Notes under the pieces: model-generated | What the model was told of the DNA's origin: nothing | Databases searched by the model: none | What the model saw: only the letters and a program-made list of their open reading frames with translations | Assembly: GCF_036588685.1 (NCBI RefSeq) | Contig: NC_086385.1 | Location: forward strand, 558,001 to 622,000 | Reading direction: 5' to 3' | Source: Mytilus trossulus | Taxonomy: Eukaryota | Length of the DNA: 64,000 nucleotides | Program-made: the position numbers and the translations under genes | Part shown: piece by piece, positions 4,921 to 60,175 of the stretch | Numbering within the stretch: position 1 is the first letter of the stretch | Layout of the letters: every line of letters begins with the position of its first letter

Positions 4921-6185
4921 TTCATTTATAATACTTCAAAGTTAAATTTCACAAAGTATAAGAAAATTCTGTCGATTTTTTTCTATACCCCTGAACTACC
5001 TTAAATAACAGATTATCTGAAAACAATCATAGTTTATACATTATGGGATATTCTCATGTTTAAAGGCTTTCATGTAGCCAAAAAAATCCCTATATATCTA
5101 CTCCAAATTAGTATTTTGGGATAGTTGTCTCATTAGCAATTATTCACATCTGTTAAGTTTTCCATTAGTGAAATTCAAATAAAAACATTGAATTCCAATT
5201 TTAATAAATGTGAACCTTCTGAAGTTCTCATTCTTTGACCACATAGAAATTAGTAGACAATTAAAATATATTATAATTTCATATAACAACTGTAGAAAAG
5301 TTTGAAATTATTTTCATGTGATAATATCATCTGCAAAAATTATATATTTTCAGATAACAATAGAAAGAAGAAGAGCAGGATTTCTATTTTGAGGATTTAC
5401 ATGTATGGGACAGAGGACTATTTGACTTGATTTTACTTTAATTTGGACTTTTTAACAATAATACTCTTAAATTATTTAAAATATTTTTTACATATGTTTC
5501 ATTTTAACAATATATTTATGACTATCATGACTATAATATTTATTTATCATTTAATAAACGTTTATTTCTAAACAATTTTATATTTTCAAATATACAATGT
5601 GAAACACTCGACCATTTTATATTGATGACCTGGGGTAAATGTACATGAGACAATAATGCTGTTGCAATACAAAAAAAACCCTGAGATTCATAGATGCAAA
5701 GCTAGCATATTCATAGGGCTTTAGTGGTTGATTAAATAGAGAATCACTGGAGCGGGCCCCTCTTAAGTCAGTCAGCAGCCCCCTAGAAAAAGTTCTGGAT
5801 CCGTCAATGATATCAGGCATTTACATGTATTTTATGAAAATTTTATGTCTCAAATTCTACAGTACGTAGAATTTGAGACATAAAATTTTCAGAGATATAA
5901 AAAAAGTCAACTTGATGATTTATTAGGTGTGAAGGACTGAAACAGAATCGTTCACTTCTCCTAGACATAGTGAGGTAAATGTATCATTGAGGTCTCTCAA
6001 ATGGCCTATCATGACTTGACTTTTCACTGTTTTTCTGAAGTGTGTAAATAAATCATTTTAAGTAGTCTCTCTTTTTTCATACATGTTTGATGAAAAGTCT
6101 AAACTAATATTCAAATTAGAAAAAAGAAAACTGAGCAACTAGAACCCACAACATACAATTGATATCAGGTGTTCCGGAAGAGTAA

Positions 6186-6406
6186 GGGACGACATCAAAA
6201 GATCAATGTAAGATAAAAAACTTAATTCAAATAGTTAGGGGGTGGGGGTTGAACTGCTGCAAGATTTGGTTATCCTACATTGATTTTTACATATATCCAT
6301 ATGGGTCAATAAAGTTTTCCCAAATTAAGTTAAGAGGGGGTAGGGGGTCAGTGAAAAAACTGTGAATTAAGTCTTTTATCCTTCATTGAACTTTTGGTGC
6401 CGCCCC
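6186..6406. mobile_element. Tourist/PIF-Harbinger-like MITE
   Basis: Imperfect ~45-bp TIRs (GGGACGACATCAAAAGATCAATG... / ...CATTGAACTTTTGGTGCCGCCCC) flanked by TAA at 6183-6185 and 6407-6409. It splits a minus-strand fragment of the PLE 3'-end repeat. Confidence 0.8.
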
Positions 6407-8444
6407 TAAGTAGATCCTGCTCCTAGTGTAATATTAGAAATGAGATGTGCCGTTTTCCTATATGTAAAAACATGCCCCAGGGCCCAGACTCACTCAAATA
6501 TGAATGGTTAGTGTACACCAGGTTGCTTGATATGCATGATAAGGACAGGACAGACATTTATAAACATGTCACTTTGTGTAATTGTCAACTTCCAGCTTGC
6601 TTAGTATTTTTTATATAAACAACAAGAACAAAGACTAAAAATCAAGTGAATATTATTGAAGCATCAGATTAAAATTTGTTAATTGGTACTTTTAAAATTG
6701 ACAAGTTGATTTCAGATTAATATTTGCCATAATATTTACTATAAATCAAAGAATGAGATTTGACTGTAACCATTACCCTAAAATAATAGCTTAAAACAAA
6801 GATTAATTGAGTGCTTACACTTTGCACTTGTGTAGGATTTTTATCCAGACAATAACTTTTGACTTGTCCCTTACTGAACTTTTTGAAAAGTTGGGGGAAA
6901 AGGGGGGGGGGGGTACTTCCAGACAACTGAAGTCATTAATATGGAAAAATTAGTTCATAGATTAAACCAGTTTCAATGTACTACATACATCTGTTACACA
7001 CTGCAGCATAATTAAATAACTACAGAAAACGTAATACGAGGAGTTTTGGCAACATGCAAAACATCAACAAATGACGGTGTAAAGCCTTCAACCCCTCATC
7101 ATTTTTAAGTAAAATATATTAAATCCTGGTAACATCATCATCCTTTATTGTCTCAATCAATTTCGTGGTTGAAAATGTGAAATATGACATAATTTGCTTT
7201 ACTTTGCGACGAAATAACTCCAAAAACCTCTGAAAAATGTTGAATTTCGACCTCCGGTTGAAGTATTTAATATGTAAACAAGAGGCAGAGTGACGGGGAA
7301 TCCTATACATAGTCATGTGCCCATTTGTTTCTGGGTCACATTTATTTATATCTCGACCAATGAAAAGCTTTAGGATGCATTTGTGTCAGTTCCTAGCAAA
7401 CAGGGGGATTTTCTGGAAATCCGCGGAGGACGTCTTTTGATTTATCATATTTCAGTAACGCAGCACTTATTTAAATACCTATTTTGGCAGTCGTGTGACA
7501 AAATCTATTCTAATGAAAAATTAACCTCAAACACTGATGGATGTTAAGTTGTTTTAATAAATTTATTGCCTGAAGCACAGGCTATGTTTTTGTTTACACG
7601 CTGGTTACAGCGCCACCTCGAAATTTTTATATTATCTCCCCTTTCCCGCGGGACCACCGGAAGGAGCTCTTCAATGTCACTGGCTTTCCCACTGATAGGA
7701 GTTTAATTTAATCAAAACAAAACGGTATATGCATATTCATTTTCGTTCATTCTTATATTGTGGTTAATAACTACGACCATTTGTCAGCTGTGCGCTTTTA
7801 ATTACGTATATTGTCGATAAACTATAAGAGTTAAACAGATTTTATTTTTTCCCAGAATTCAACAAATCGGGCTAATACGTCACGACCCACTCGAGAATTC
7901 AACCAAAAAAGTTACAAATACTTGATTTTCTCCGTTATTAGAAGGAATATAAATTTAACATGTTTAAAACTTTGCAAATGTGTGTTTTATGTTAAGATGA
8001 ACATAATTAGATGATAAGTAAAAAATCGCGGAATTTCCCTTTAACTGACATGCCAGCTCCAGACTTCAATTAAACTGACTGAAAGATTATTGATTTCATC
8101 ATATGAAGATCAGGCACAATCCTTCCCGTTAGGGGTTTAATATTATACTATCATAACATATGAGAAGAACATAACCCGTGTCATGCCAACAACTGTTTTT
8201 AGAATAAATGTGTTTAGTTCCGACGCAAATACCTTATCAGTGACTCAATATTAACTCCAAAATATGCAATCTTTAATGACTTGACAACAGTCTCGTAATT
8301 ATATCCCTTCTTAATAAGTCTATTCAAATGTTTTGTAAGTTTCTGAGGTGAATACTGACACCTTTGTGCTTTATAAAGAATATTTCCATAAAAAATTGGA
8401 TGTGAAATACCTGAACGTATAAGAAGTCTGCATGTTGAGCTATA

Positions 8445-10505: not shown

Positions 10506-12000
10506 CGTAACATGTATGGTATGTTTTTAGAACTAAACAATAAACATATTAATATGTTATTGGTTAAGTGACTAACGAATAGATTTTGTTCAACTTTGCT
10601 ATATTTTAAATACTATGAATAATATTGATCGTCATAAAATCTTGTTTATTCGCGTCAAACAAAGTTCAAATTAAAAAAATACATAAAAATACTAAAAGGT
10701 GAAAATTAGGTAGCAATAAGTGAAATGTAGCAGGTTGCCTTTAAATGCTGTGATTTTAGCATTTCTTAATAATAACCGGAAATCTGTTTTAAGTTTTTAC
10801 CTCTCAAACAATTAAGTGTAAGAAATGTGTTTTCGTATGATTTAAATAAAACTTTGCTTTATTATCAATATGAAAAAGAAATATTTGATAAATATTTAAT
10901 TAGTTCAATGCAAATTACTTAGAAGCCAATAACTGAACACTTTATTGCATTTAGAACCTAACCACTATTAAACGGACAGCCCTTGCACTTACACCTATCA
11001 TCAAGATGCTTTTGAAGGTTAATTATCAAATAAAAATTTGCACGGTTGACCATTCGTTTTCATCGAAGTATGAACTGGTATTTAACGTTCAGAAGACAAA
11101 ACTGAGTCTATATCAGGGTTAGAACATTGAAGATGTGATAGTAATATGCATCTACTAAGACCGAAAGGATGAGTCGTATTCAATAGGTGTAAATGTACAA
11201 GATATCAATCTACAAGAGAGACATCTTACCAAGACACACGGACTCAGAACTGATCGGTCTCTGTTTTTGTCCTAAATGCCGCGTCTTAAACAAAATAGGT
11301 GCATTTACCAGTTTATTAAACAAGAAATTAGAAATCTCCTCAATATTGACAAATCGTGCATGTATCGTGAACGTGAAAAAGGAGTTCAAATAGGTTTCCT
11401 ATTCATGCTTAAACAAAATTGTTATGCACTGGATGCTTCTGGAATAGCCATGGTTACATGCATTGGCTCTCGAACTTAGAGTTTCAAGGCCAATACAACT
11501 AATCTCGAATCTATACCAGTGTAAATACAGAAACCGCCAGTTTATAACGCTAAAATCCAAATCTTTGATTTTTCGATAAACTTTTAATCTATATCAGTGC
11601 TAACACAGAAACAGCCAGTTTATAAAGCTATAATCCAAATCTTTAATTGTTTGATAAACTTTTAATTGATACCAGTGTTAATACAGAAACAGCCAGTTTA
11701 TAACGCTATAATCCAAATCTTTGATTGTTCGATAAACATTTAATCTATACCAGTGCTAATACAGAAACCGCCAGTTTATAATGCTATAATCAAAATCTTT
11801 GATTGTTCGATAACTTTTAATCTATACCAGTGCTAATACAGAAACAGCCAGTTTATAACGCTATAATCAAACTCTTTGATTGTTTGATAAACTTTTAATC
11901 TATACCAGTGTTAATACAGAAACAGCCAGTTTATAACGCTTTAATCCAAATCTTTGATTGTTCGATCAACTTTTAATCTATACCAGTGCTAATACAGTAA

Positions 12001-12541
12001 AAGTTATCAAAGGTACCAGGATTATAATTTAGAACGCCAGACGCGCGTTTCGTCTACATAAGACTCATCAGTGACGCTCATATCAAAATATTTATAAAGC
12101 CAAACAAATAAAAAGTTGAAGAGCATTGAGGATCCAAAACTCCAAAAAGTTGTGCCAAATACGGCTAAGATAATCTATGCCTGGGGTAAGAAAATCCTTA
12201 GTTTTTCGAAAAATTTAAAGTTTTGTAAACAGGAAATTTATAAAAATGACCACATTATTGATGAACACCGAAATCATGACTACTGGGCTGGTGATACCAT
12301 CGGGGACGAAACGTCCACCAGCAGTGGCATCGACCCAGTGGTGTTAATAGTTATCAAAGTTACCAGGATTATGATTTAGTACGCCAGACGAGCGTTTCGT
12401 CTACATAAGACTCATCAGTGACGCTCATAACAAAATATTTATAAAGCCAAACAAGTACAAAGTTGAAGAGCATTGAGGATTCAAAATTTCAAAAAAGTTG
12501 TCGAAAATACGGCTAAGGTAATCTATGCCTGGGATAAGAAA
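12001..12541 (-). mobile_element. Non-LTR retrozyme, ~1.5 units
   Basis: Reverse complement of the 356-bp unit at 31356-32827. Hammerhead motifs lie at 12034-12077 and 12381-12424. Confidence 0.9.
12034..12077 (-). ncRNA. Minimal type I hammerhead ribozyme, intact core
   Basis: Reads GCGUCA-CUGAUGA-GUCU(UAUGU)AGAC-GAAA-CGCGCG-UC^-UGGCGU: stem I, core, stem II, GAAA, palindromic mini stem III and a GUC cleavage triplet. Confidence 0.9.
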
Positions 12542-13487
12542 ATTGATATTAACAGCCAGTTTATAACGCTATAATCCAAATCATTGATTGTTCGATATTT
12601 TTTAATCTATACCAGTGTTAATACAGAAACAGCCAGTTTATAACGCTATAATCCAAATCTTCAATTGTTCGATACACTTTTAATCTATACCAGTGCTAAG
12701 ACAGAAACAGCCAGTTTATACCGCTATAATTCAAATCTTTGATTGTTCGATAAACATTTAATCTATACCAGTGTTAATACAGAAACAGCCAGTTTATAAC
12801 GCTATAATCAAACTCTTTGATTGTTCGATAAACATTTAATCTATACCAGTGCTATTACAGAAACAGCCAGTTTATAACGCTATAATCAAAATCTTTGATT
12901 GTTCGATAAACATTTAATTTATACCAGTGTTAATACAGAAACAGACAGTTTATAACGCTATGATTCAAATCTTTAATTGTTCGATACACTTTTAATCTAT
13001 ACCAGTGCTAACACAGAAACAGCCAGTTTATTACGCTATAACTCAAATCTTTGATTGTTCGATAAACATTTAATCTGTACCAGTGTTAATACAGAAACAG
13101 CCAGTTTATAACGCTAAAATCCAAATCTTTAACTGTTCGATACACTTTTAATCTATACCAGTGCTAACACAGAAACAGCCAGTTTATACCGCTATAATCA
13201 AAATCTTTGATTGTTCGATAAACATTTAATCTATACCAGTGTTAATACAGAAACAGCCAGTTTATAACGCTATAATCAAACTCTTTGATTGTTCGATAAA
13301 CATTTAATCTATACCAGTGCTATTACAGAAACAGCTAGTTTATAACGCTATAATCAAAATCTTTGATTGTTCGATAAACATTTAATCTATACCAGTGCTA
13401 ATACAGAAACAGCCAGTTTATAACGCTATAATCCAAATCTTTAGTTGTTTGATAAACTTTTAATCTCTACCAATGCTAATACACTTA

Positions 13488-13888
13488 AAGTTATCAAAGG
13501 TACCAGGATTATAATTAAGAACGCCAGACGCGCGTTTCGTCTACATAAGACTCATCAGTGACGCTCATATCAAAATATTTATTAAGCCAAACAAGTAAAA
13601 AGTTGAAGAGCATTGAGGATCCAACACTCCAAAAAGCTGTGCCAAATACGGCTAAGGTAATCTATGCCTGGGATAAGAAAATCCTTAGTTTTATGAAAAA
13701 TTTAAAGTTTTGTAAACAGGAAATTTAAAAAAAAATGACCACATTATTGATATTCATATTAACACCGAAATAATGACTACTGGGCTGGTGATACCATCGG
13801 GGACGAAACGTCCACCAGCAGTAGCATCAACCCAGTGGTGTTAATAGTTATCAAAGGTACCAGGATTAAAATTTAGAACGCCAGACGC
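13488..13888 (-). mobile_element. Non-LTR retrozyme, one unit plus ~45 bp
   Basis: Same family. Intact hammerhead at 13521-13564; the 5' end lies within a few nt of the next hammerhead cleavage site. Confidence 0.9.
13521..13564 (-). ncRNA. Minimal type I hammerhead ribozyme, intact core
   Basis: Identical 44-nt motif to 12034-12077. Confidence 0.9.
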
Positions 13889-14322
13889 CATAAACTTTTA
13901 ATTTATACCAGTGCTTATACAGAAACAGCCAGTTTATAACGTTATAATCGAAATATTTGACTGTTCGATAACTTTTAATCTATACCAGTGCTAATACAGA
14001 AACAGCCAGTTTATAACGCTATAATCCAAATCCTTAACTGTTTGATAAACTTTTAATCTTTACCTGTGCTATTACAGAAACAGCCAGTTTATAACGCTAT
14101 AATCCAAATCTTAGATTGTTCGATAAACATTTAATCTATACCAATGATATTACAGAAACAGCCAGTTTATAACGCTATAATTAAACTCTTTAGTTGTTCG
14201 ATAAACATTTAATCTATATCAGTGCTAACACAGAAACAGCCGATTAATAATTTTAAAAGCTATAATCCAAATCTTTGATTGTTCGATAAACTTTTAATCT
14301 TTACCAGTGCTAATACAGAAAC

Positions 14323-14607
14323 ATCCTTAGTTTTTTGAAAAATTTAAAGTTTTGTAAACAGGAAAGTTATAAAAATGACCACATTATTGATATTCATGAC
14401 AACACCAAAATGTTGACTACTAGGCTGGTGATACCCTCGGGGGACGAAACGTCCACCAGCAGTGGCATCGACCCAGTGGTGTTTATAGTTATCAAAGGTA
14501 CCAGGATTATGATTAAGTACGCCAGACGAGCGTTTCGTCTACATAAGACTTATCAGTGACGCTCATATCAAAATACGGCTAAGGTAATCTATGCCTGGGA
14601 TAAAAAA
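14323..14607 (-). mobile_element. Retrozyme fragment with mutated hammerhead (core CUGAUAA)
   Basis: Resembles 12195-12541 with an internal deletion, and shares the stem III variant and right junction. Hammerhead at 14519-14562. Confidence 0.8.
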
Positions 14608-15483
14608 ATTGATATTAACAGCCAGTTTATAACGCTATAATCCAAATCATTGATTGTTCGATATTTTTTAATCTATACCAGTGTTAATACAGAAACAGGT
14701 TTTTTATAACGCTATAATCCAAATCTTTAATTGTTCGATACACTTTTAATCTATACCAGTGCTAAGACAGAAACAGCCAGTTTATACCGCTATAATCAAA
14801 ATCTTTGATTGTTCGATTAACATTTAATCTATACCAGTGTTAATACAGGAACATCCAGTTTATAACGCTATAATTCAAATCTTTAATTGTTCGATAAACC
14901 TTTAATCTATGCCAGTGCTAATACAGAAACAGACAGTTAACAACGCTATAATTCAAATCTTTGACTGTTCGATAAACTTTTAATCTATACCAGTGCTAAT
15001 ACAGAAACAGCCAGTTTATAACGCTAAAATCCAACTCTTTGATTGTTTGATATTTTTAAATCTATACCAGTGCTAATATAGAAACAGCCAGTTTATAACG
15101 CTATAATTCAAATCTTTAATTGTTCGATAAACCTTTAATCTATGCCAGTGCTAATACAGAAACAGACAGTTAACAACGCTATAATTCAAATCTTTGACTG
15201 TTCGATAAACTTTTAATCTATACCAGTGCTAATTCAGAAACAGCCAGTTTATAACGCTAAAATCCAAATCATTAATATGTAATTGTACGATAAACTTGTT
15301 ATCTATACCAGTGCTAATACAGAAACAGCCAGTTTATAACGCTATAATTCAAATCTTTGTTCGATAAACTTGTAATCTATACCATAGGAACAAATGGAAC
15401 TAATGAATGTGTTTGTCCTGCAGAACCGCCAAGCTACCATTATAGTCGCCTGATCTGTGTTTTACCAATTGTATCATATTTCC

Positions 15484-20792: not shown

Positions 20793-22107
20793 GTATCCGC
20801 GTCAATGATGAGTCTTATGTATACCAATCGCGCGTCTGGCGTACTAAATTATAATCCTGGTACCTATGATAACTATTTACACCATGGGTCGATGCCACTG
20901 CTGGTGGACGTTTCGTCCCCGAGGGTATCACCAGCCCAGTAGTCAACACTTCGGTGCTGACATGAATATCTATGATGTGGTCATTTTTATAAATTGTCAT
21001 TTTAGATGTGGTCATTTTTATAAATTTCCTGTTTACAAAACTTTGAATTTACCGAAAAACTAAGGATGTTCTTATCCCAGGCATATATTTCCTTAGCCGT
21101 ATTTGGCACAACTTTTTGGAATTCGGGATCCTCAATGCTCTTCAACTTTGAACTTGTTTGGCTTCATAAATATTTTGATATGAGCGTCACTGATGAGTCT
21201 TATGTATTTCTGGTACCTTTGATAACTATTTCCACCACTGGGTCTATGTCACTGCTGGTGGACTTTTCGTCTCCGAGGGTATCACCAGCCCAGTAGTCAA
21301 CACTTTGGTGTTGACATGAAAACAATAATGATGTCACTTTTATAAATTTCCTGTTTACAAAACCTTGAGTTAACCAAAAAAATAAGGATTGTCTTATCCC
21401 ATGCATATATTACCTTAGCCGTTTTTAGCAAATTGTTTATGAATTTTGGATCCTCAATGCTCTTCAACTTTGTATTTGTTTGGCTTTATAGATATTTTGA
21501 TATGAGCGTCAATGATGAGTTTTCTGAAGTCAAAACGCGCGTCTGCCGTACTGAATTATAATCCTGGTACATTTGATAACTATTTACACCACTGGGTCGA
21601 GGCCACAGCTGGTGGACGTTTCGTCCCCGAGGGTATCACCAGCCCAGGAGTCAACACTTCGGTGTTGACATGAATATCAATAATGTGGTCATTTTAATAA
21701 ATTTCCTGTTTACAAAACTTTGAATTTATCGAAAAACTTAGGATTTTCTTATCCCAGGCATATATTACCTTATCCGTTTTTGGCACAATTTTGGGGAATT
21801 TGGGATCCTGAATGCTCTTCAACTTTGTACTTTTCTTGCTTTATAAATATCTTAATATGAGGGTCACTGATGAGTCTTATGAAGACGAAAGAGGGACGAA
21901 AGATACCAAAGGGACAGTCAAACTCATAAATCTAAAACAAACAGACAAAGCCATGGCTAAAAATGAAAAAGACAAACAGAAAAACAATAGTACACATGAC
22001 ACAACATAGAAAACTAAAGAATAAACAACACGGACCCCACCAAAAACTAGGAGTGATATCAGGTGTTCTGGCGTATTCAATTACAATCCTGGTACCTTTG
22101 ATAATTA
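20793..22107 (+). mobile_element. Older, degenerate retrozyme array (~3 units)
   Basis: Same ~350-bp unit with damaged hammerheads at ~20799, 21184, 21506 and 21860. TTATAA on both flanks may be a TSD. Confidence 0.85.
21888..22067 (-). mobile_element. 5'-truncated PLE 3'-end fragment inserted into a hammerhead
   Basis: Reverse complement of ~53855-54034. It separates ...GACGAAA from TCTGGCGT. Confidence 0.85.
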
Positions 22108-24787
22108 TTATAACTCAAACTGAGGGAAAACACATATATAAGAGAACTACGACTCAGCAGAAACACAAAACTAAAATGTAACACACACAGAAAGGAACGA
22201 TAATATAACAATTGGCCTTTTCCTGACTTGGTACGGGACATTTTAAGACAAACATTGTGGGTAGAACCTGGTATGCGGCTAGCGAAACCTCGAGCTTTTA
22301 TGGAAAGATAAACATAACAATAAAATGAAAACATTACATGATAGGACTACTCTACGAATAAATGCAGGAATGTTCAAGACAACGAAATACACAGCTATAC
22401 ATTACAATATGACATTTCGACATGCTGATAACTATCAAAGTTACCTGGCGTATAATGGGATAAAACAATCCTTAGTATTTAGAACAATTCTTACTTTTGC
22501 AAACATAAAATTTATAAAAATGACCATGTAACTGATGTTCATGTCAGCACCGAAGTGGTGACTTACCACAGAATAAAAATAAACACGTAAAACAAAACAA
22601 CGAAAGCACACAAAACAGTACAAAATAACCTAGCATTGTCACCTATAGAATAACGCTACAAAATGAAGTCACAGGAAAAGTGACATCACGATAACTTTCG
22701 GAAAGTTTGATTTATTTAAAAAACAGGATTGTAAGTATGGCATGTAATAATCAAATCTTTGACCAAGAATAGTCTTTATTTTTGTAAAGCATGTGCCAGA
22801 TTGATAACAAACTACATAATGTCTTATATAAAAAGCTATTATATATAGTCAATAAATCGAATGTCATAAATTTGACTGAAGGGTATTTGCTTGTAATGTT
22901 TCGGATTTTGTTGTCAGATTTTCGGAATCCTCTGGGTTTATCCATTTGAATGCCCAATGTAATTTCCTATAGAAACTCCTTTTACGGCTTAAACTGTACC
23001 ACTTTTACTATGATGTTTTGAAAAAAATCTTATCCTAGACAGGAAAGTTCATATGCACAACATTTGTTTTCAAATGTCAAAATATAGGGCTGTGCGACAT
23101 ATTTTCAACGTTTATATTCCCTGAACTTCTCAGAGTTTAAACTAACACTAATTTGCTAAATTGCCCCTACCTCGAATGAAAGGTTACCACAAATTTCAAT
23201 GTGAACAATATGCACATATTTTTTACTGGTATTATTCCTAAGTTATGTCTCTGTGAGATGGAGCATAACTGGGAACCAGTATGTAATCAATGTTCTATGA
23301 ATATTCAAGATCTCCCCAAAAGAGGTGTATTTTGAGAAACAGCTGTATTTACAAAGTGCAACTTTAAAACATTTTGTCATATAATTTTTAAAAATTGTGA
23401 GACGTCAATGATAAAGCTTTGAAAAAATCAAGAGAGGAAATTTTTCTGCCAAAAATTCAGTCATTATTATTTAAAAAAAAACAAGCACACGGACCTATAT
23501 ATACTATTTGCTGTGTTTGGTTCCTTTATTTATCCACTATCAGTATAGATAAGTGTTATAAAAAGCTTGATAATTTGAAACTGAGTGGCGAACTTCCTTA
23601 AATAATAGATAAGCATAAATCATTCATAATAAAATAAAACAAAAACATGTATTATTATGGATATTAAATATAAAGAAAATCAATATAGTCAATGAATCAA
23701 ATGTAATATTTGTTTCTTTAAAAAAAAAAATAAGCATTACTTATTCAAAATTAATCACCAATAAAAACGTAAAAACATTGACATATACACAATAGTTGTA
23801 CGGTTTGGATTTGAATTTTTTAGAATGTTAAATTAACACATTACATAATACATCACAAAATATAATGAAATGCAACGACATAATTTATTATAATATGTAC
23901 AAAACATACAATTTTAAAATCCATTCTCAATAGTTATCATGACTTCTTAATAAATGAAGCAGCATACTGCATATGCATAATTGAGGGACATGAAAGACAT
24001 AAAAACAAAAGTATCCGAGCTATCCATATCATCTATATTCGAATAGATATTTTCAATTTGTTTAAAGACTCAATTCTTTAGTTTATATTTCCCGTCCATT
24101 TAAACCAGAAATGTCCCTTCATCATCTTTTTCTTTTAAAGCCCAATATTGACATAAACGGTCTTCTCGCTTATAATGATGCGAAATTAAAAGACAATAAT
24201 TGTATGAAATGTTTACTAGTATTGTCAAGTAAAATTTGAAAAGAAACAGTGTCCTTTTCATGTTTAGAAAAAAAAAGACACAATGGTTTCATTTTATTTT
24301 GTAATTGTTGCAACAAAAGTTTTAGGTAAAGAAATAGATAAAGATTGAAGTAGTACTTTTGAAAGTGATCTCCCTTTCGTAAGAAAAATTACAATTCATA
24401 CTTCCTATGATCAGAGAGATATTGAAAAAGAACATGAATGTGTCATTCGTTAACCAGAGGTGGGGAATCTACCATAATATATCATAAAATCTTGTAAAAT
24501 TTATGTTTATCATCTCGTTTGTTTGTTGCGCTTAAAATCTTATACAACAGAGACTCTCTAAAAAAAAACAGGAGATAGGTAACCATGTATTTTATAGTCA
24601 AACGCAGTAATGGAATATACTAAGTATTTTCATAAAAACAAAGTCTTCTTATTCATGTTATTATTTATATAAAAAAAAAAAATATTTGAATATTTTTCTT
24701 AAAACTAGCTAAGTATTTTCATAAAACGAACGATACTAACTGCTTTCATAAAACAAGCTATATGACATATTTTCTTAAAACAATATA

Positions 24788-30806: not shown

Positions 30807-31355
30807 TTAAATATGATGTGTTGTGTTTTTATGAATGTTGGGTCAAGTGCCCAGATCAGTTTGAAATAAATGGTTATAGTAAAAAAACATCTCTCTAGAG
30901 CAAAGTGCAATGGCGGGGTATAGTGTTATTCTATAAGAAATGGCTGAATCAATATATTGATATAATAAAATGTGAAGCAGATTGTATGATTTGGTTTAAA
31001 TTTGATAAATGTATTATGCCAAATAGCAAAAAATTATATATATATATATATGCAATTTATATGCCTCCAGATAAAAAGGTGTATTATGAAAAATATGATA
31101 TAGACTTTTTTTATGTATTCCAAGAACAAATCAAACATTTCTCAGACATAGGGACAGTTGCAGTGATAGGCGACCTAAACGGGAGAATTGGAAGAGATAA
31201 AGACTTTATTGAAGGTGATATTCTGAATAAACAATTAATCGATAACATACAGTTTGTTGATTATATAAGTGACAATTGTCTCCCAGATAGAATTACAGAA
31301 GCTTAAAGGCCTCTTATAGTTTCGGGCGTCGAATATTAGAACTGTGTAAATCATC

Positions 31356-32827
31356 TGGCGTACTAAATTATAATCCTGGTACTTTTGATAACTACTTACA
31401 CCACTGGGTCGATGCCACTGCTGATGGACGTTTCGTCCCCGAGGGTATCACCAGCCCAGTAGTCAACACTTCGGTGTTGACATGAATATCAATAATGTGG
31501 TAATTTTTATAAATTTCTTGTATACAAAACTTTAAACCTTTTGAAAAACTAAGGATTTTCTTATCCCAGGCATAGATTACCTTAGCCGTATTTGGCACAA
31601 CTTTTTGGAATTTTAGATCCTCAATGCTCTTCAACTTTGTACTTGTTTGGGTTTATAACTATTTTTGATTTGAGCGTCACTGATGAGTCTTGTGTAGACG
31701 AAACGCGCCTCTGGCGTACTAAATTATAATCCTGGTACTTTTGATAACTATTTACACCACTGGGTCGATGCCACTGCTGGTGGACGTTTCGTCCCCGAGG
31801 GTATCACCAGCCCAGTAGGCAACACTTCGGTGTTGACATGAATATCAATAATGTGGTCATTTTTATAAATTTCTTGTATACAAAACTTTTAACTTTTTGA
31901 AAAACTAAGGATTTTCTTATCCCAGGCATAGATTACCTTAGCCGTATTTGGTTCAACTTTTTGGAATTTTAGATCCTCAATGCTCTTCAACTTTGTACTT
32001 GTTTGGGTTTATAAATATTTTTGATTTGAGCGTCACTGATGAGTCTTATGTAGACGAAAGGCGCGTCTGGCGTACTAAATTATAATCCTGGTACTTTTGA
32101 TAACTATTTACACCACTGGGTCGATGCCACTGCTGGTGGACGTTTCGTCCCCGAGGGTATCACCAGCCCAGTAGTCAACACTTCGGTGTTGACATGAATA
32201 TCAATAATGTGGTCATTTTTATAAATTTCTTGTATACAAAACTTTACACTTTTTGAAAAACTAAGGATTTTCTTATCCCAGGCATAGATTACCTTAGCCG
32301 TATTTGGTTCAACTTTTTGGAATTTTAGATCCTCAATGCTCTTCAACTTTGTACTTGTTTGGGTTTATAAATATTTTTGATTTGAGCGTTACTGATGAGT
32401 CTTATGTAGACGAAAGGCGCGTCTGGCGTACTAAATTATAATCCTGGTACTTTTGATAACTATTGACACCACTTGGTCGATGCCACTGCTGGTGGACGTT
32501 TCTTCCCCGAGGGTATCACCAGCCCAGTAGTCAACACTTCGGTGTGGACATGAATATCAATAATGTGGTCATTTTTATAAATTTCTTGTACTATACAAAA
32601 CTTTACACTTTTTGAAAAACTAAGGATTTTCTTATCCCAGGCATAGATTATAATTACCTTAGCCGTATTTGGCACAACTTTTTGGAATTTTAGATCCTCA
32701 ATGCTCTTCAACTTTGTACTTGTTTGGGTTTATAAATATTTTTGATTTGAGCGTCACTGATGAGTCTTATGTAGACGAAACGCGCGTCTGGCGTACTAAA
32801 TTATAATCCTGGTACTTTTGATAACTA
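31356..32827 (+). mobile_element. Tandem non-LTR retrozyme array, 4 x ~356 bp plus ~40 bp
   Basis: Hammerheads at 31674-31717, 32030-32073, 32386-32429 and 32751-32794 (spacing 356, 356, 365). Removing the array restores the LINE reading frame. Confidence 0.93.
32751..32794 (+). ncRNA. Minimal type I hammerhead ribozyme, intact core
   Basis: GCGTCA CTGATGA GTCT TATGT AGAC GAAA CGCGCG TC TGGCGT. Confidence 0.92.
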
Positions 32828-33865
32828 TTAAGAACTTGTAACGGACGATATGGTGCTGATAGTGGTAAAATTACATTCCTTATATAAAAACGGTTTGATT
32901 GACTATTTATTAATGTCACATGATATAATTTGATTTAACAATTAAGTGTAAAAGATTTTAATACTTACTCTTGTCATGCTCCATTGAATTTTGAAATTCA
33001 CATAAAGGGTTTTAAAATTGTAAATGAAAAATGTACCTGTTCAAAATTTGTATATAATACTGTTAGATGGGATGAAAGGGACAAGGATGACATCATGAGC
33101 GAATTATTGGAAACTTTCTCAAAAGGTTGATGATCTTTTGTTACACTTGACCGAACACGAGAACAAAATTGACGAGTGTGTCAACGAATTAAATAAACTT
33201 TTGATTACAATTTGTGAACAGTATACTAAAGTTGAAGTAAAAAAGTAAACAAATGCGGCTACTGTGTAATATAGCAATTACCAAAAAGCCAGTATTTAAA
33301 CTTAACAGACCATGGATTTCAGAAAACTGAAAACTTTACGTAGACAATATAAATCAGCGTTAAAAGTTTTCAATGAAAAACGTAACAATGAAAACAGAAT
33401 TAAATTGAACATTGCTAAACAGAATTACAAGCAAACAGATATGAGACTCAAGAGACAGTACAAAAACCAACAAATGTTGAATCGGTTGCGTCGAAATAAC
33501 CCCAAAAAGTTTGTCCGGAAATTTAAAAGAACTCGGAATAATCATTCGAATTCTATAACACTGCAACAATTTCAAGCGCATTTTCAAAATTTAGTGTCGG
33601 GAAATACGTATAACGAAAACGAAAGAGTCTATACAAAATGTGTTCGAAGAATTGGACGCCCCATTCACTGAGAATGAACTTAGTTATGGAATACGACAAT
33701 TAAACGAGATAAAAATACTGGATTTGACAACATACTAATCGAATACCTTATTACTGGTAAAGCTGCACAAGTCCTATTTAATAACATTTTAAATACTGGA
33801 AATTTCCTGCAGATGTGGGTTAAAAGCATAATGGTTCCTGTGTTTAAGAAGGGGGATTTGGATGA

Positions 33866-40017: not shown

Positions 40018-40243
40018 AACACGACGTTGCCACTTGTGGAGAAGGATTTCCTTACCCTGCCGGAGCAATTGTGATCATAAGAAGTTGTTTGTGGGGTTGG
40101 TGTTGCTTAGTCTTTAGTTTTCTATGTTGTATTTTTTTGTATTATTATTTGTCTGTTTGTCTTTTTATTTTTACGCCATGGCGTTGTCAGTTTATCCTCG
40201 TTCTACGAGTTTGAGACTGTTAATTTCGGTATATTTCGCCCAT
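40018..40243 (+). mobile_element. PLE 3'-end (SINE-like) fragment, diverged
   Basis: Aligns to 53803-54034. Further copies lie at 40963-41120 and 52948-53165. Confidence 0.75.
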
Positions 40244-41755
40244 CTCATGAAGCGAAATTAAGACATCCTTATATATAGTTTTTTTGTATTCATCTTCGTT
40301 CAGTGTTTAATGTCGTTGAAATAAAAATGTCATCAACGTATTCAACTTTTTCCTTCATGGTTTAATCAAATGAAAAAAGGGCGCATAAATGTTTTTGACA
40401 TTAATCTATAAATGATACGTTTATGAAGGACACTTTTTCTTAAATCAATTTATTCATCATTTATTTTAATTGTTCTCAACTCATGTAACTTTACGGATCA
40501 ACATTTCAATGGCGGATATCTAAAAAAACACCAAAAACGAAGTCGGTAAGTTTCACCGATTATAGAATCAATGTGTCAATTTTTAATACCATTCTTTACA
40601 TGTATATCTTGGTGAGATCACTAAATGCCACATTTCAACATAATACCAACCACTAGTATTATTGTATATGACAACTAATTTGTCCTTTTGTAACGCAACA
40701 ATAGTTTACCCATGGGTAAATGAAAATGACACTTGGTTAATTTCGTTTATCAGAAGCACTTTCTTACTTTCGACAGGAACGCTTAAATCAAAACATATTG
40801 AAAGTCGGGGATGTAGAAAATCTAGATGTAGATCATGTAACCAAAAATGGTATAAATCTAGAGCAAAGCTCGTCTATTGATTTTACCATGAAATATCCAT
40901 TGCTGTTCATTAACATTATGTCATACCAGTAAGCAAACAGGAAACAACAATTCCTTAATTTGTCATGTTTGGGTTCGTGTTGTTAATTCTTTAGTTTTCA
41001 ATGTTGTATCATGTGTACTATTGTTTGTCTGTTTGTCTTTTTAATTTTTTAGCCATGGTGTTGTCAGTTTGTTTTAGATTTATTAGTTAAACTGTTCCTT
41101 TGGTATTTGTTGTCTCTCTTGTGTAACTCTATACCATAGACCTTCTGAAAATACTTGCACGTTAAGTCTAACTCGTTTTTTCTGTAGCCAAGCGACCCAA
41201 GCTCCTAACCGTGCATTGCTATCACAGTGGCGGGTATCGGTGGTGGATTCGGGATTTGAGTAACCTCAAGAAAAATAAATGAAAACGGAACGAATGAATT
41301 AAATGAAAGGATGTTATATTTATTGTATTTATTGATTTATTTTTTAAATCTATATGATGGTTTAAATTTGTCTAGTTTCATAATGAAAATAATTAAAATG
41401 AAGATGAATACCGTACAGCATTCATGATGGTCATTGTCAATAGAGTGTATATATATTTGTCGTTTGTTTGAAACGCCTTTCAATATACAATATATTGTTT
41501 TTGCTTCTTATTAAGAACCATTATATGTTCAAATGAATGTGTTAAGTAAAAACGTAAATATTTTAAAAGCTTGATGTTTAAAGGTACATAAAAGTCACAG
41601 CCAAACTCATTTACCCGAATTTTCAACGTGGAATTATAACATAAACAAACTTCATATCGGGACATATTAATAAGTAATGAACAAAATTACGAATTAAAGG
41701 ATACTAAATGTATAAATTTACCAATAAAGCAGAACGTTATCCTTTTCTGTTATCG

Positions 41756-43933: not shown

Positions 43934-45339
43934 TATTATATTGGCTGATATTGATTTTAAATACGAATACTCATCGAATTTTCGATACGCACATCTGAAA
44001 GCTTTATCAACTATCTTATAACAAAAGTGAAAAGGTAAATACGTTATCCTAATGTCCTAATGATCCTATTTCCATGACGATATAAATCCCATGGACAACA
44101 AACGATACTGTGTCATCGGAGTCTAATTTAGTCATCATTTGTTTGGACGGAAACTGTTGTTTTGAGTGAACGGAAGATATACAGCTCAATATTGTATTTA
44201 GTCCCCTTTATATCAAACTCTAAACTTAAAACATCTCAAACACAGATAGATGTGTATATATCAAATGTTGTTATTTTACTTGTTTTTAATACCATTAATG
44301 ACATGTTTATCTTATTGAGATCACTAAATGCCACATTGCATCATAATACCAACCATTAATATTAATGTATATGACAACGTATTTGTCCTTTTGTAAAATA
44401 GCAATAGTTCACCCATGGGTAAATGAAAATAACACTTTGTTAATTTCGTTTATCCGAAGCACTTTTCTGATTTTGTTTTCGACAGGAACGCTTAAACCAA
44501 AACATATTGAAAGCCGGGGGATGTAGAAAACCTAGATGTAGATATTGTTACCAAGATGGTATAAATCAAGAGCAAAATTCGTCCATTGATTATAACATGA
44601 AATATCAATTGCTGTTCATTAACATAACGGTTTACCGTCAAACAAACAGTAAACAACAATTCCAAAAATGCCTAGATAATAGAAATACTATGACCTTGAC
44701 TTCGGTCATCCGACAGTAAGGTCATTCGATATGATGAGCAGGAAATTGAGAATGGGAATGAGGAATGTGTCAAATAGACAACAACCCGACCATAGAAAAA
44801 AACAACAGCAGAAGGTCACCAACAGCTCTGCAATGTAACGAGAAATTCCCGCACACTAGATTGTACATAGTTTTTGTAGTAAATAGATACTATTCTAGAG
44901 ATTTCAGTATAGTCTGCTTAATATTCATAATATATCTTGGTACTTTTTGCAATCTAATTTTGAAAAATTATTTTTACTATGTACATACCGTTATTTAGAG
45001 GGAAACAATTCTGAAAAGTTTCGTCAATGTATATCTTACGCTTCAGTTCGGATACTCTCTGTAAAGTCAAACTAATGAAGTTTAGTCAAGGTCAATGATG
45101 TACATAACTTACTATATATTTATGAATGGTTCAATTAACTTCAGAAACAACTCCGTGATTGTAACATAATATATCCATTGCTCTGCATTCCCTTGAAGTC
45201 ATAAAGATATACAAATACGAACACCTATACCAAATGTATCATCAAGGTAATATAAAAACCTGATTACTTTCGTTTGAAATTAAAAGATGCTGCAGACGAG
45301 TGTCCATGTTGCCTAATGTATGTAATTCAACATTTAGTT

Positions 45340-51325: not shown

Positions 51326-52011
51326 CGAGGTAAACTCACCTTTTTTTTGGGAGGGGGGGATGGGGAGGAACACCAAGTCAGTAATACGAGAATGAATTAC
51401 TATTCGTTATTTTGATACACAAAGTTTGACCTTTTTTGTGTCAGATTTTATGGACTTCCCTTTTTGAATTCACCTTGGAGTGAAGTTATTTTGCTAATAC
51501 TTTTTTACTTTGTAGATAATTTGTCGTAAATATTAGTTTTACTTTTGCTGTAGTAGAAGAAGAAAACGCATTCGTCAAAAAGCAAAAGAGTCAATTACAG
51601 ACAATGCTCTGCGCAAAAATTCAATTCACAACTTGTTATGCTCACTTAAACCAAAACATAGTTGGTGTAAACTACCATGAGTATATTGCAGAAAATTGGA
51701 ATTTTGTTTGAATAAATCGTTCCTTTGTTTAGGACTTACATGATCAACAACTACAGGAAAACCGACATAAACATCACATTATCAAGAGATGTTTTAAATT
51801 CGTTTGGAAACTATTAAATGTTATAGCAACAGTAAGACTAGTTTGACAATTTAACCAATAGATGATTACAGTTTAGTGTATTTTTGTGTTATTTTCATCC
51901 TATTTTTGTTTGAACGGATTGGAATGATCACCGGGTGATTACTTGATTGAGGAACACTTCGGATGCCACTAGTTCAAGGGGGTCTGCTTACTCTTCAATG
52001 GTGGAGTTCGT

Positions 52012-52702
52012 GTTCGCTTTAATTCATTTATCCCCATATATGATAGTGAACTAATGTCGCTTTCATTCATGTATCCCCATATATGATAGTGCACTAATGT
52101 CGCTTTTATTCATGTATCCCCATATGTGATAGTGTGCTTATGTCGCTTTCACTCATGAATCCCCATATATGATAGTGAACTTATGTCGCTTTCATTCATG
52201 TTCCCACTATATGATAGTGAGCTACTGTCGCTTTCATTCATGTATTCCCATATATGATAGTGAACTAATGTCGCTTTAATTCATGTATCCCCATAAGTGA
52301 TAGTGAACTTATGTCGCTTTCATTCATGTTTCCCCATATATGATAGTGAACTTATGTCGCATTAATTCATGTATCCCCATATATGACTGTGAGCTAATGT
52401 CGCTTGTATTCATGTATCCCCATATATGACAGTGAACTAATGTCGCTTTCATTCATGTATCCCCATATATGATAGTGAGCTAACGTCGCTTTCATTCATG
52501 TATCCCCATATATGATAGTGAACTTATGTCGCATTAATTCATGTATCCCCATATATGATAGTGAGCTTATGTCGCTTTCATTCATGTATCCCCATATATG
52601 ATAGTGAACTTATGTCGCATTAATTCATGTATCCCCATATATGATAGTGAGCTAATGTCGCTTTCATTCATCTATACCCTTATATGATAGTGAGCTACTG
52701 TC
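52012..52702. repeat. 43-bp minisatellite, ~16 units
   Basis: ATGTCGCTTTCATTCATGTATCCCCATATATGATAGTGAACTA repeated. Confidence 0.95.
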
Positions 52703-53164
52703 AATGTTTATTCAAAATTTCCTACTTTTGATATAATTTAGTCTCATTTTAGTTGGGACTACATAGTACAAATGTATTACCGTATTTGTTTTTCAAAAAA
52801 AATGGAAACGTGTTGTTTTTCTCGAAATGTTTGTGCCTTTTTCTTTTTGTTCTTTGTGTTGATTCTAAAAATGACATGAGTTGAGAACATCAAAGAAAAC
52901 ACATCGCACTACCACACACACACACAAAACAATTTCACTTTCAACATAATGAGACCTACCGAATTAGACTTGTTACCGGGTTTGTATTAACATAAGCAAT
53001 AAGACGGGTGCAATGTGTGGAGCAGGATCTGTTTACCCTTCCGGGACACCTGAGATCACTTCCAGTTTTTGGTTGGGTCAATGTTGCTTATGTTGTGTTT
53101 TGTGAACTATTGTTTGTCTGTTTGTCTATTTTCTTATTTAGCCATGGCGTTGTTAGTTTATTTT

Positions 53165-54783
53165 ATATTAATATTAACCTGCTGTGAACTTGACTGACAA
53201 AAACATGAGGCCAAGAACTTGTTAATTTGATATGATTATAAATATGATCTGTACTACACTGTCATACACACGAGGACGAGATCATGTTAATTTGCTATGA
53301 ATATGAACCTGCTCTGAACTAGACTGACATACAAATAAAGACGAGAACATGTTAATTTGAATGAATATGAATCTACTCTGTACTAGACCGACATACACAT
53401 GAGGATGAGATCATGTTAATTTGATATGTATATTAACATCCTCTAAATTGGACTGACATACACATAAAGACGGGATCATGTTAATTTGATATGAATATGA
53501 ACCTGCTCTGTATTAGACCGACATACAAATGAGGACGAGATTATGTTAATTCAAATCATGATTTTCTTGATAGAGGGTTACTGCTCACAAGGAAGCTATT
53601 AAACCAATAGTTCCAAATGGTGAAGTTGAAATCATCCCTTCGTAAATTTTACGGACGCCATCACGAGTTGGTTGACCGTTATGGAATAACCGTTTCACAA
53701 ATGATATCGGATATGTTCCTTACGTCGTAACTACAATCCCCTTCCCTTTCATGAATTTGACCTACCGAATTAGACTATTTACCGGATTTGTAATCGCATA
53801 AGCAACACGACGGGTGCCGCATGTGGAGCAGGATCTGCTGACCTTTCCGGAGCAGCACCTGAGATCACCCCTAGTTTTTGGTGGGGTTCGTGTTGTTTAT
53901 TCTTTAGTTTTCTATGTTGTGTCATGTGTACTATTGTTTTTCTGTTTGTCTTGTTCATTTTTAGACATGGCGTTGTCAGTTTGTTTTAGATTTACGAGTT
54001 TGACTGTCCCTTTGGTATCTTTCGTCCCTCTTTCAATTTGATATGAATATGAACCTGCTCTGTACTACACTGACATGCACATAAAGACGAGAACATGTTA
54101 AATTGATATTAATATAAACCTGCACTGAAAATGAATGGCATACACATAAGGATGATATCATGTTAATTTGAAATGAATATTAACCTCCTCTGAACTAGAC
54201 TGACATACACATAAAGACGAGAACATGTTAAATTGATATTAATATAAACCTGCACTGAAAATGAATGGCATACACATAAGGATGATATCATGTTAATTTG
54301 AAATGAATATTAACCTCCTCTGAACTAGACTGACATACACATAAAGACGAGAACATGTTAAATTGATATTAATATAAACCTGCACTGAAAATGAATGGCA
54401 TACACATAAGGATGATATCATGTTAATTTGAAATGAATATTAACCTCCTCTGAACTAGACTGACATACACATAAAGACGAGAACATTTTAAATTGATATT
54501 AATATAAACCTGCACTGAAAATGAATGGCATACACATAAGGATGATATCATGTTAATTTGAAATGAATATTAACCTCCTCTGAACTAGACTGACATACAC
54601 ATAAAGACGGGAACATGTGAATTTTATATGAATATGAACCTGCTATGTACTAGACTGAGACACACATGGGGACGAGGTCATGTTAATTTGATATTAATAT
54701 TAACCTCCTCTGAACTAGACTGACATACACATAAAGACTAGAACATATTAATTTGATATTGATATTAACCTGCTCTGAACTAT
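53165..54783. repeat. 65-bp minisatellite downstream of DUF229 copy C, with a 130-bp dimer repeated ~4x
   Basis: Same family as 8445-8865. Identical dimers start at 54091, 54221, 54351 and 54481. Confidence 0.93.
53551..54034 (+). mobile_element. 5'-truncated Penelope-like element: RT C-terminus and 3' UTR
   Basis: Translates HDFLDRGLLLTRKLLNQ*FQMVKLKSSLRKFYGRHHELVDRYGITVSQM, homologous to the end of the RT at 61143-61330. It is inserted in the 65-bp array. Confidence 0.8.
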
Positions 54784-54839: not shown

Positions 54840-56428
54840 TTATAAACGGAAATTACATGCACACCACTTAAACGGAATATGAGCATCTTGACATGATCTT
54901 TTCCTCGGAATTTCCTTGAAAAGGGAGATACCTTTTTGACGATAGGTTTTTATTCCATGGTGATTGTTGTCAAGATCAAGAAGATGCAATAGAGTAGAAT
55001 GAGTGTCAAAATGTGTCGTAAGTCTTCCAACATTTGTTCGTAAATTCTTAAAATAGCTACAATATTTTGTTTTGAACCAAGGCGGAACATACATGAACAT
55101 CATTGGGAGTCTCTCCTCTAATTGGCCAATAAAGGTTGGTCTAACTTAACCATATCTTATACCGTGATCCCCGAACAGTGCGAGGAATGTGTTGTTCAGT
55201 AAACTATTTTTGTGTAGTCTTTGAAGTGTCTTAGAAGTTAGTCTGTAAATAGTTTGAGCACGGGTTAGACTATCATGAGTCATATCATATGACTCATATG
55301 TATATGCTACGACAATGAGAAATACGGATTGTCTTTTAAGTTTGACACCATATTAAACATTGTTTCGTTGACGGATTCAGATGACGATTTTCCATGCTAG
55401 CAAAGTCTCGTTAACTTTCGGTTACCCTTTTCATTTGCGTCATGGAAAGGTTGATAATAATAATCTGTTGGTTGGTATTTGAAGCCAGACATGTCCTTTG
55501 AGTAAAATGTGCATACTGCATCCTGTCCATAGTGAGTTGTATAGCCAAATTTTGAAAACTCTTTCCAAATAAATGGACATTTATCAACTCCTTCTGAATC
55601 TTTAAAGCACGAGGATTTTTCTATAAAATCTCCAGTCAACAAAGCTGCTGTGTTTGGTCTAGTATTAAACGCCACTTTGTTATGTCCAAGTAGTTCAGTT
55701 GCGTTTAATGTTTCCAACAAATACTCTCTAGTCTTGCGTAAATATCGAACAGAATTAATTCTTGAAGTCGACTCTATCATTATGAGTAGCACATTTAGAC
55801 GGGTTTCTCGATGATTATCCATATTCGGTATATTTTTCACTTGTACGACATGTTTTCGTAAGTCAGATGCTTTCAGGTTTGGATCGTTTTTTACAAATAC
55901 GGTATGGAAGTTTTTAGCTATCACTTTATTAAAGGTATCATAACATTGAACCTTTATAAATTCGTCTGTAACCCGTACAGATTTATTGAAATGTCCATTA
56001 ACTTTACCGAGTTTGAACAAATTACTGATGTAATATATAGGTTCATATGAACAATATTCGACTTGGTTTCGGCTTTTCGTCAAATTGATATAGAGATTAT
56101 TATTATCAACATATGTAATCACATTACTGTTATCGCATTCTGATACTTGTGGATCATCAGTTAAAAATTCGTTGATAGATTGATCGAACGAAATTACTCC
56201 CGGTATTTTACATACCTCTGATTCCACAAGAAAATCGGTGTTGTTGTTGAATTTAGATAGCACTTCAAGATTACATTGTGACACGTTTTCCATTTCAAAA
56301 GAGTATGCCGTTTTTGTATTTATCTTCAAACGATGTACTTAATGTATTAGGAACGAAATGTACACACACACACCTACACACAAATAAAGAACCGTTTTCT
56401 TTCCAAAACAACTGAACAGACTTATCAT
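54840..56428 (-). pseudogene. DUF229 copy C, multiply disrupted
   Basis: Stop after the signal-anchor (~56340), TAG at 55397-55399, and a small duplication/frameshift at ~55281-55300. The N-terminus and upstream region are divergent. Confidence 0.9.
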
Positions 56429-58920: not shown

Positions 58921-60175
58921 AAGTATCAAACGACTGAAATGTTGTTGCGAATAAATATTTTGAATAAAAGAGTACATGCTGGCACTCTGTATTGATGGGT
59001 ATTTTTTGTTGTAGTCAATGTTTTTCAATATTGCTGTCATTTGTTTTTTACAAGATATCCGGAAATCAATATTACTGAATTATTATGCAGATGTATATAG
59101 TTGCCGTCAGGTAAAATTGGCACCATGTTTTGTCATATTTAGATATAAGCCGCGTTTACTCAAGATGATGTTTTTCATTTAGCGGAAGTAAAATTCTGTT
59201 CAAATATCCACTACTGTCCTACCTTTTATTGTGTTTGCACTGTATAATCCTGACCTATTAGTATAATCTACATTATTATACAGATCCGTCTGCATTATAT
59301 TTAATTACCTATCTCGAATTTATAAACAACAGGCTTGGCAGTACCAGATATGAATAGTTTTCAAAGATACCAGGATTTTATTTAAGTACAAGAACAAAGT
59401 TAAGGAGCGTTGAGGACCCAATTGAGGAGACAATTTGTCACAAATATTAGTTTTACTATTGCTGCATTGTGAATACACAAATGAGTCAATTACAGACAAT
59501 GCTCTGCACAAAATTCAATTCACAACTTGTTATGCTCAATTAAACCAAAACATAGTTTGTGTAGTCTAGCATGAGTATGTTGCAGAAAATCGGACTTTTG
59601 TTTGAATAAATCGTATCTTTGTTCAGCACTTACATGATAAACAACTACAAGAAAACCGACATAAACATCCCATTATCTAGAGAGTTATAAAACCGTTTTG
59701 AAACTTATAAATGTAATAGCCATCGTAATACAAGTTTGACAATTTAACCAAAAGATGATTACAATTTTGTGTATTTTTTTGTGTTATTTTCAGCGTATTT
59801 TGTTAATAAAAAATATTTAAGAAATATGGTTATCAAATCAAAATAATTGACAATTGAACGGATTGGAATGATCACCGGGAGATTACTTGGATGAGGAACA
59901 CTTCGAGTGCCACTAGTTCAGGGTGGTCTGCTTACTCTTCCGGGGCACATGTTGGGAGTACGTGTTGCAAAATTTTCATTGGAATACATGTGACAGTAAA
60001 ATTTGTATGATGACAGATCACTGATATGTTTCGTTGATATAAAGATTAAATTTGAATAAAAGATTACATTTCCCGCATGAAAAAAAAGATCAGAGCTTGT
60101 AATTAGAGAAATAAGAGCTAATCAAATAAATGCAATGACTACAATTTAAGATATCTGGTTTTTTTATTGTTTGTT

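Follow-up and report, generated by a model that had tools for sequence, protein, structure and literature searches.

Retrozymes, Naiad Penelope-like elements (PLEs) and the idea that PLEs move retrozymes have all been published previously. Non-LTR retrozymes of the mussel Mytilus galloprovincialis have a tandem unit of about 350–390 bp with a type I hammerhead, and PLEs were proposed as their mobilisers (PMC7229834, PMC7761336). Self-cleavage and circular RNA in vivo were described for a M. galloprovincialis retrozyme, and mussel retrozyme RNAs pile up as unit-length circles of 350–400 nt (PMC7229834). According to the available text of a 2020 review, animal retrozymes have no conserved motif that reveals their partner (PMC7761336). 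The Naiad clade is characterised by an N-terminal GIY-YIG, CxC, DKA, a C-terminal RT, a pseudo-LTR and many short 3'-end copies, and it has no canonical hammerhead (PMC8557442). In the main text of that paper, a word search finds neither "hairpin" nor "palindrom", and the RNA passages deal with SECIS elements and hammerhead searches. A preprint on vertebrate retrozymes also ties retrozymes to PLE termini by sequence homology; its available text concerns Xenopus and pseudo-LTR regions, includes no mollusc and no cis motif, and found Naiad only in a coral (bioRxiv 10.64898/2026.07.22.740005).

The mussel elements analysed here resemble the M. galloprovincialis retrozymes in unit size and hammerhead type, and they differ from the Xenopus case in that the partner is a Naiad without a hammerhead and that a hairpin of the 5' body alone is in common. 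We hold with moderate confidence that the retrozyme carries a near copy of the hairpin with which Naiads open, which would be the place where the Naiad endonuclease/RT binds and starts copying 4–9 nt to the 5' side; this reading is drawn from sequence comparison. In contrast to the description in the available text of PMC7761336, we present a motif that points to the partner and a fixed insertion end, and beyond the available parts of PMC8557442, two conserved Naiad RNA modules are described, the 5' hairpin and a 3' UTR module with a palindrome. In the literature searches and the texts consulted, no account of either motif or of a Naiad-retrozyme link was found.

The window is a stretch of 64,000 nt from Mytilus trossulus (contig NC_086385.1, positions 558,001 to 622,000), AT-rich animal DNA with satellites and with 356-nt tandem repeats that bear type I hammerheads. 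The repeats are non-coding tandem units in the range of 150–450 bp with one type I hammerhead per unit, as is typical of retrozymes. One array on the plus strand (31354..32829) contains about 4.1 units, starts near the hammerhead cut and ends at the equivalent of 32108. Another plus-strand array (20799..22109) is interrupted by a Naiad fragment, and three retrozyme insertions (11997–12543, 13489–13888 and 14317–14609) lie on the minus strand within 11997..14609. For one unit, the type I hammerhead at 32030..32073 (plus strand) matches Rfam RF00163 at 28.6 bits, and the cut is expected after 32067 from the hammerhead consensus; across the window units the scores are 23–33 bits, just under the gathering score of 34. 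One RNA run contained the retrozyme unit, in contigs that do not reveal strand and ends.

The hairpin that the earlier note had marked in the retrozyme at 32123–32161 is real. It occupies 32115..32172 on the plus strand, occurs in 10 window copies and folds better than shuffled sequences (z = -3.9), and its pair probability in the folded retrozyme circle is 0.89–1.0. The outer stem P0 pairs 32115–21 with 32166–72, and P1 pairs 32123–28 with 32156–61, with a near-invariant bulged core and an apical stem-loop beyond.

Independent loci were obtained by pattern scans of contigs. Metagenome contigs gave at least 120 loci (about 220 estimated); among the matches listed, 103 with a GC content of 45% or more were treated as chance, 17 had lower GC, one of these (L078) was dropped for having no stems, and 16 were kept. 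Four of the 16 kept among the matches listed are Naiad 5' ends (L032, L045, L072, L076) and one is a retrozyme of the window family (L028). The other eleven (L008, L018, L019, L020, L021, L052, L054, L067, L068, L095, L097) have the same Naiad hairpin and a hammerhead-like core, and represent, among the matches listed, one or more additional retrozyme-like families; the period, where it could be measured, is about 340 nt. This second family is called hammerhead-like by its core letters and its ~340-nt period, and Rfam did not detect the cores in L008 and L020. No match for either pattern was found in viral contigs, and in genome contigs the 3' pattern had a single match, the Naiad 3' end L121. 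This 407-nt contig is listed under a bacterial genome, yet its Naiad 3' end is of bivalve type, so it is probably contamination.

L032 belongs to the Naiad family seen in the window and is intact, with a protein of 995 amino acids that has N-terminal GIY-YIG, CxC, DKA and RT. In Pfam, GIY-YIG is found at 130–167 (weak, E 0.037) and RVT_1 at 640–849 (E 1e-4), while the values for L072 are E 1e-5 and E 8e-4, respectively. As expected for Naiads, GIY-YIG is N-terminal to the RT in a single ORF, and the translation has CxC, DKA instead of DKG, a CX2-5CxxC finger before GIY-YIG and a KR-rich block. Moreover, the first 144 nt of the locus repeat its own 3' end and form the pseudo-LTR, the hairpin follows 7 nt further on, and the locus has no Rfam hammerhead at E ≤ 1.

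That the mussel retrozyme combines a hammerhead with a Naiad 5' hairpin, and thus is a chimera, is well supported. The 5' hairpin of L032 and the retrozyme motif are identical at 50 of 58 nt, and the former matches all 10 window retrozyme copies with 80–86% identity over 64–71 nt. When the 356-nt unit is compared with the whole 3447-nt L032 locus, one 71-nt segment is in common (E 6e-19), and the next best match has E 0.04. R2, a covariance model built from the four Naiad 5' ends alone, scores the 10 window retrozyme copies at 56–76 bits, and only 13–29 bits were given to five chance loci with an identical exact core; therefore the flanking stems carry the match, beyond the selected core. Across 20 hairpin sequences, pairing holds in 89.7% of cells, and changes on both sides are seen in 7 of 22 pairs, a number reached by 2 of 500 shuffles (0 of 500 for the covariation score), in a shuffle control that ignores the kinship of the sequences. 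Because the Naiad loci were fetched by a pattern derived from the core, the identity of the core is selected and the core cannot covary. In Naiads the hairpin is located where the pseudo-LTR meets the main body. It does not appear in the minimum-energy fold calculated for the first 330 nt of L032, although its main stems have ensemble probabilities of 0.6–1.0 across four windows.

The same core is present in published Naiads. In the supplement of PMC8557442, as far as available, the retrozyme core (C/U)GCUGGUGGA-hairpin-UCCC(C)GA is found near the 5' end of 15 of 54 consensus sequences (Amil, Aacu, Anas, CGi, Sglo, Olur, Tgra, Pmar, Mcor, Mgal, Bpla, Skow-1, Pfla-1, Pfla-2 and Cmel; Pmar named by file order), which span corals, bivalves, hemichordates and a fish. 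Two of the 15 have a one-base difference in the 3' half. The exact core word is absent from the other 39 of 54, a figure to be read with the facts that 9 of the 54 are marked incomplete and that an exact-word search misses variants. In the closing stems of the 15 Naiads the letters change and the pairing is kept, the apical loop ranges from a few to about 19 nt, and Mcor, Mgal and Skow-1 have an extra hairpin inserted; none of the 15 has the HHR_core annotation of the authors (PMC8557442).

These variations bear on the reading that the Naiad GIY-YIG endonuclease recognises the hairpin in DNA or cDNA form and would cut there to resolve tandem intermediates. The Penelope endonuclease required "tail" sequence for cleavage (cited in PMC11167929), and the tails of PLEs were explained by endonuclease resolution (PMC8557442), as far as these sources are available. 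However, G-U pairs favour the plus strand as RNA, and an RNA fold fits better with the inserted hairpins and variable loops tolerated in the published consensus sequences, so that this reading is quite improbable.

Another structure was observed in the same four Naiads (L032, L045, L072, L076), namely a conserved hairpin 90–95 nt past the hairpin core, within the first ORF codons. Its loop pairs with a downstream segment and the letters co-change, which by inspection is an H-type pseudoknot; it is also visible in the available oyster, coral and hemichordate consensus passages. It is not contained in the retrozyme and may serve translation.

The hairpin shared by retrozyme and Naiad lies next to the insertion boundary of the retrozyme. 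Contigs of three DNA runs were placed on 32030–32440, and loose ends were read from contigs, not from raw reads. Among those listed, loose ends with long unlike flanks (median 186–255 nt, agreement 0.38) cluster at 32108–32110 in all three runs, with contig counts per place of 293 and 185 in X7, 250 and 182 in X13, and 159 and 107 in X3. The other clusters, among those listed, have short tails (median 15–52 nt) with an agreement of 0.52–0.79, and several resemble variant unit sequence. Thus 32108..32110 (plus strand) is the genome-wide 3' boundary of retrozyme insertions as seen in contig loose ends, and the putative RT start. It is 4–6 nt 5' of the outer stem and 41–43 nt 3' of the expected hammerhead cut, and therefore differs from the end of the cleaved RNA. 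Of the 10 retrozyme insertions or fragments in the window, 6 end within 32105–32111 and four elsewhere, and several loci of the second retrozyme-like family also stop 4–8 nt ahead of the hairpin. Five Naiad copies of the window align with the pseudo-LTR; four of them end 7–9 nt before the hairpin position and the fifth stops earlier, and the own 3' end of L072 stops 6 nt before it. Naiad 3' ends near the hairpin follow from any head-to-tail tandem, and therefore only the retrozyme boundary is independent evidence. Contig depth is about 1.5–3 times higher just 5' than 3' of the boundary; contig depth is not copy number, and it was left out of the argument.

The boundary also weighs against the idea that the hairpin region is an internal promoter or a 5' UTR element, as a transcription start, an intron or a splice signal would be, captured for retrozyme transcription, since a promoter leaves unexplained why retrozymes end at 32108–32110 rather than at the hammerhead cut. 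This idea draws on 32118–32128, which resembles a Pol III B box, and on the distance of the hairpin to the first ATG, 52–61 nt in the four Naiads. In addition, the promoter and the 5' UTR intron of Penelope and Chlamys-3 span the pseudo-LTR/body junction (PMC8557442), and a schistosome SINE-like element combines a Pol III promoter with a hammerhead (PMC6765202), according to the available parts of these papers. However, the B-box-like letters vary across Naiads while the pairing stays, and the retrozyme unit contains 7 runs of four or more T. Such runs stop Pol III. Overall, a captured promoter or 5' UTR element is unlikely.

Identical boundaries would also be produced if the hairpin were a self-cleaving or protein-assisted processing element, cut 4–9 nt to its 5' side and thereby making the Naiad 5' end and an RT-start 3' end. 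A near-invariant bulged core within covarying stems at a retroelement 5' end would suit such an element, and HDV-like and twister ribozymes occupy a similar 5'-end spot in other retrotransposons (PMC7761336, available text). However, an efficient second cut would remove about 42 nt and block circles, yet unit-length circles accumulate (PMC7229834, available text), and the hairpin fold has neither a multi-helix junction nor a pseudoknot. At the retrozyme hairpin, as at the Naiad 3' UTR module, Rfam gave no match at E ≤ 1 (hammerhead, twister, pistol, hatchet and others), and by inspection the hammerhead core CUGANGA...GAAA...UH on a three-way junction is absent from both. For HDV-like ribozymes, whose hallmark is a nested double pseudoknot P1-P1.1-P2-P3-P4 with a catalytic C, a descriptor run without a positive control had 0 matches in four regions on both strands. 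We consider a processing element improbable.

If the hairpin is the docking site, as we prefer, the Naiad protein would bind it and start reverse transcription with nicked AT-rich DNA as primer on the U-rich tract immediately to its 5' side. The retrozyme RNA, cut by its hammerhead and circularised, would then be copied from the boundary point round the circle, which would lead to tandem arrays whose 3' end is fixed and whose 5' ends are ragged. On a Naiad transcript that covers the pseudo-LTR and continues into the body, copying would begin at this same point, with the pseudo-LTR part first, and would give many short 3'-end copies such as 53555–54033; for a full Naiad copy, a tandem template or a jump to the homologous 3' UTR would be required. 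For Poseidon PAc, reverse transcription starts internally at +111 to +118 and RNA is needed to +172 (PMC11167929). As proposed for the mussel case, the start is internal to the RNA, close to the pseudo-LTR/ORF junction, and RNA to its 3' side is needed, about 55–60 nt in PAc, while the retrozyme hairpin ends 62–64 nt 3' of the boundary. However, PAc belongs to another PLE clade and starts in an AC-rich stem-loop in the ORF, versus a U-rich tract before a 5' UTR hairpin here; the likeness is one of described layout.

Several Naiad 3' ends are present in the window. The copy at 53555..54033 (plus strand) is 5'-truncated and was recognised by its translation, which contains the final ~57 RT codons with one in-frame stop; the stop codon at 53728–53730 is followed by the 3' UTR, and 53555–53964 is 98% identical to the 3' end of the intact L032. 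The structure at 53803–53896 within this 3' UTR is as the earlier note described, its sequence was confirmed and its folding beats shuffles (z = -3.4). Further copies were searched with R1, a covariance model from nine 3' UTR copies with 40013–40107 and 52993–53088 in the training set. Diverged plus-strand Naiad 3'-end copies with the motif are located at 40018..40245 (R1 and sequence match; 80 bits at 40013–40107) and 52953..53169 (R1; 88 bits at 52993–53088), and a degenerate motif at 59892..59969 (plus strand, 36 bits). These agree with the positions near 53000 and 59895 in the earlier note, while the one near 51950 (51948–52017) is a weaker sister copy of the degenerate motif with only 14 bits (E 0.19). 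The copy proposed at 6165–6425 is present, but it lies on the minus strand (6160..6428, by sequence match) and is divided by about 235 nt of inserted sequence. A Naiad 3'-end fragment on the minus strand (21887..22065) is inverted inside a retrozyme hammerhead, and a short plus-strand copy (40971..41120) begins downstream of the motif.

Some other observations were made around these copies. The ~235-nt insertion in 6190–6410 is bounded by short terminal inverted repeats, with what seems to be a duplicated TTA, and looks like a PIF/Harbinger MITE. Short A/T microhomology is seen at the junction of fragment 21887–22065 with the retrozyme hammerhead, and a broken RT fragment of a different Naiad family (61180–61771, minus strand) has 70–74% identity to L072. 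The satellites comprise a 62-nt family, an array with a ~300-nt unit and short-period arrays, one of which flanks fragment 53555–54033; they are found at 15386–18284 and about 36000, 49000–51180, 52020–52700 and 53190–54760. Four paralogous intronless ORFs of one family (8922–10526, 33680–34357, 55397–56338 and 62040–63353, minus strand) are sulfatase-like by appearance, and two GPCR-like ORFs (25703–27724 and 41756–44056, minus strand) have a C-terminal repeat of 16 aa (48 nt).

The segment 53804–53894 is a conserved multi-helix structure in the Naiad PLE 3' UTR and a separate module of Naiads. On the plus strand it consists of an outer stem P0 (53804–10/53888–94), P1 (53811–16/53856–61), which is nearly invariant (CGGGUG/CACCUG), a 10-nt palindrome (53817–26), a short hairpin (53827–39) and a terminal hairpin P4 within 53804..53894. 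The purine loop of the short hairpin can pair with a downstream pyrimidine tract (53846–48) in a putative pseudoknot, in which no covariation was seen. The topology of the module may resemble the template/pseudoknot domain of telomerase. As a side observation, in three Chlamys passages of the available PMC8557442 supplement a helix starting with the P1 letters encloses a hairpin, and they may be distant relatives.

Covariation among the nine close copies is not significant, with 3 of 26 pairs, a number that 110 of 500 shuffles reach. Of the paired changes reported for the copy at 40018, UUGC/GCAA holds with one true compensatory change, but AAGG/CCUU forms a shifted-register helix that breaks one pair of the conserved stem. 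When L121 is added and the palindrome is counted, 13 of 29 pairs change on both sides, a level that 0 of 500 shuffles reach; this figure depends mostly on one or two distant sequences. With G-U counted, the palindrome is fully self-complementary in 6 of the 9 fetched copies and has 4 of 5 pairs in the other three, while the background rate of a full palindrome is 0.8%. In L121 it is perfect with a different sequence, and all 11 published Naiad 3' UTR passages with the module in the available supplement of PMC8557442 have it, in seven different perfect sequences. Because the palindrome is kept while its letters change, it likely pairs two RNAs as a dimerisation signal. The homodimer energy is -11.0 kcal/mol for the 3' motif versus about -6 for the 5' hairpin, which is suggestive only, as any hairpin can duplex.

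The earlier note had regarded the 3' UTR structure and the retrozyme motif as one layout. Both do have nested stems with a short apical hairpin, and CCG stands ahead of the closing stem in this family. However, R1 has 17 matches at E ≤ 10 in the window and none of them is one of the 10 retrozyme motifs, which by the refuting test named in the earlier note speaks against a single element; a single 8.9-bit match falls inside a retrozyme unit, away from its motif. In local alignment the two motifs score 33, at chance level against a shuffle mean of 31.7 ± 3.8 (751 of 2000 shuffles as high). The likeness UGCCAC..GUGGA..CCG is local to this mussel family, and CAC..GUG in the 3' motif is part of the palindrome, whose letters vary between families. 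With a far better partner inside the same Naiad, the 5' hairpin, it is highly improbable that the two motifs are one element. What stands of the proposal is the idea of a cis element common to PLE and retrozyme as an RT signal, with the Naiad 5'-end hairpin in this place; the 3' UTR module is not the common signal because the retrozyme lacks it. L072 also lacks the module although it has the 5' hairpin, its 3' UTR being a different one, and therefore the module is not needed by every Naiad with a 5' hairpin.

Dimeric hammerheads are known from other PLEs, and according to the available text these minimal hammerheads have a palindromic short loop in the pseudo-LTR region, like the palindrome of the module (PMC6765202). 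The module differs from them in having neither a hammerhead core nor an Rfam hammerhead match. Since it is located in the pseudo-LTR, where other PLEs carry a hammerhead, we keep as a doubtful reading that it might be a new class of self-cleaving ribozyme, a dimer linked by the palindrome, which would replace the hammerhead in Naiad pseudo-LTRs. If so, the Naiad RNA would be arranged as [new ribozyme]-[RT start]-[docking hairpin] and the retrozyme as [hammerhead]-[RT start]-[docking hairpin].

In summary, the Naiad hairpin in the mussel retrozyme offers a candidate answer to how animal retrozymes move, by naming the likely autonomous partner that the 2020 review left open in its available text. 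It provides a 58-nt candidate signal, a start site predicted within 3 nt and, in L032, a natural ORF that is intact. Naiad RTs are related to telomerase, and for this clade the hairpin is a defined candidate for an RNA that recruits the RT. The 3' UTR module adds another conserved RNA to these elements, which are known for their lack of hammerheads. Should the hairpin prove portable, it could be used to insert circular-RNA cargo by way of PLEs.
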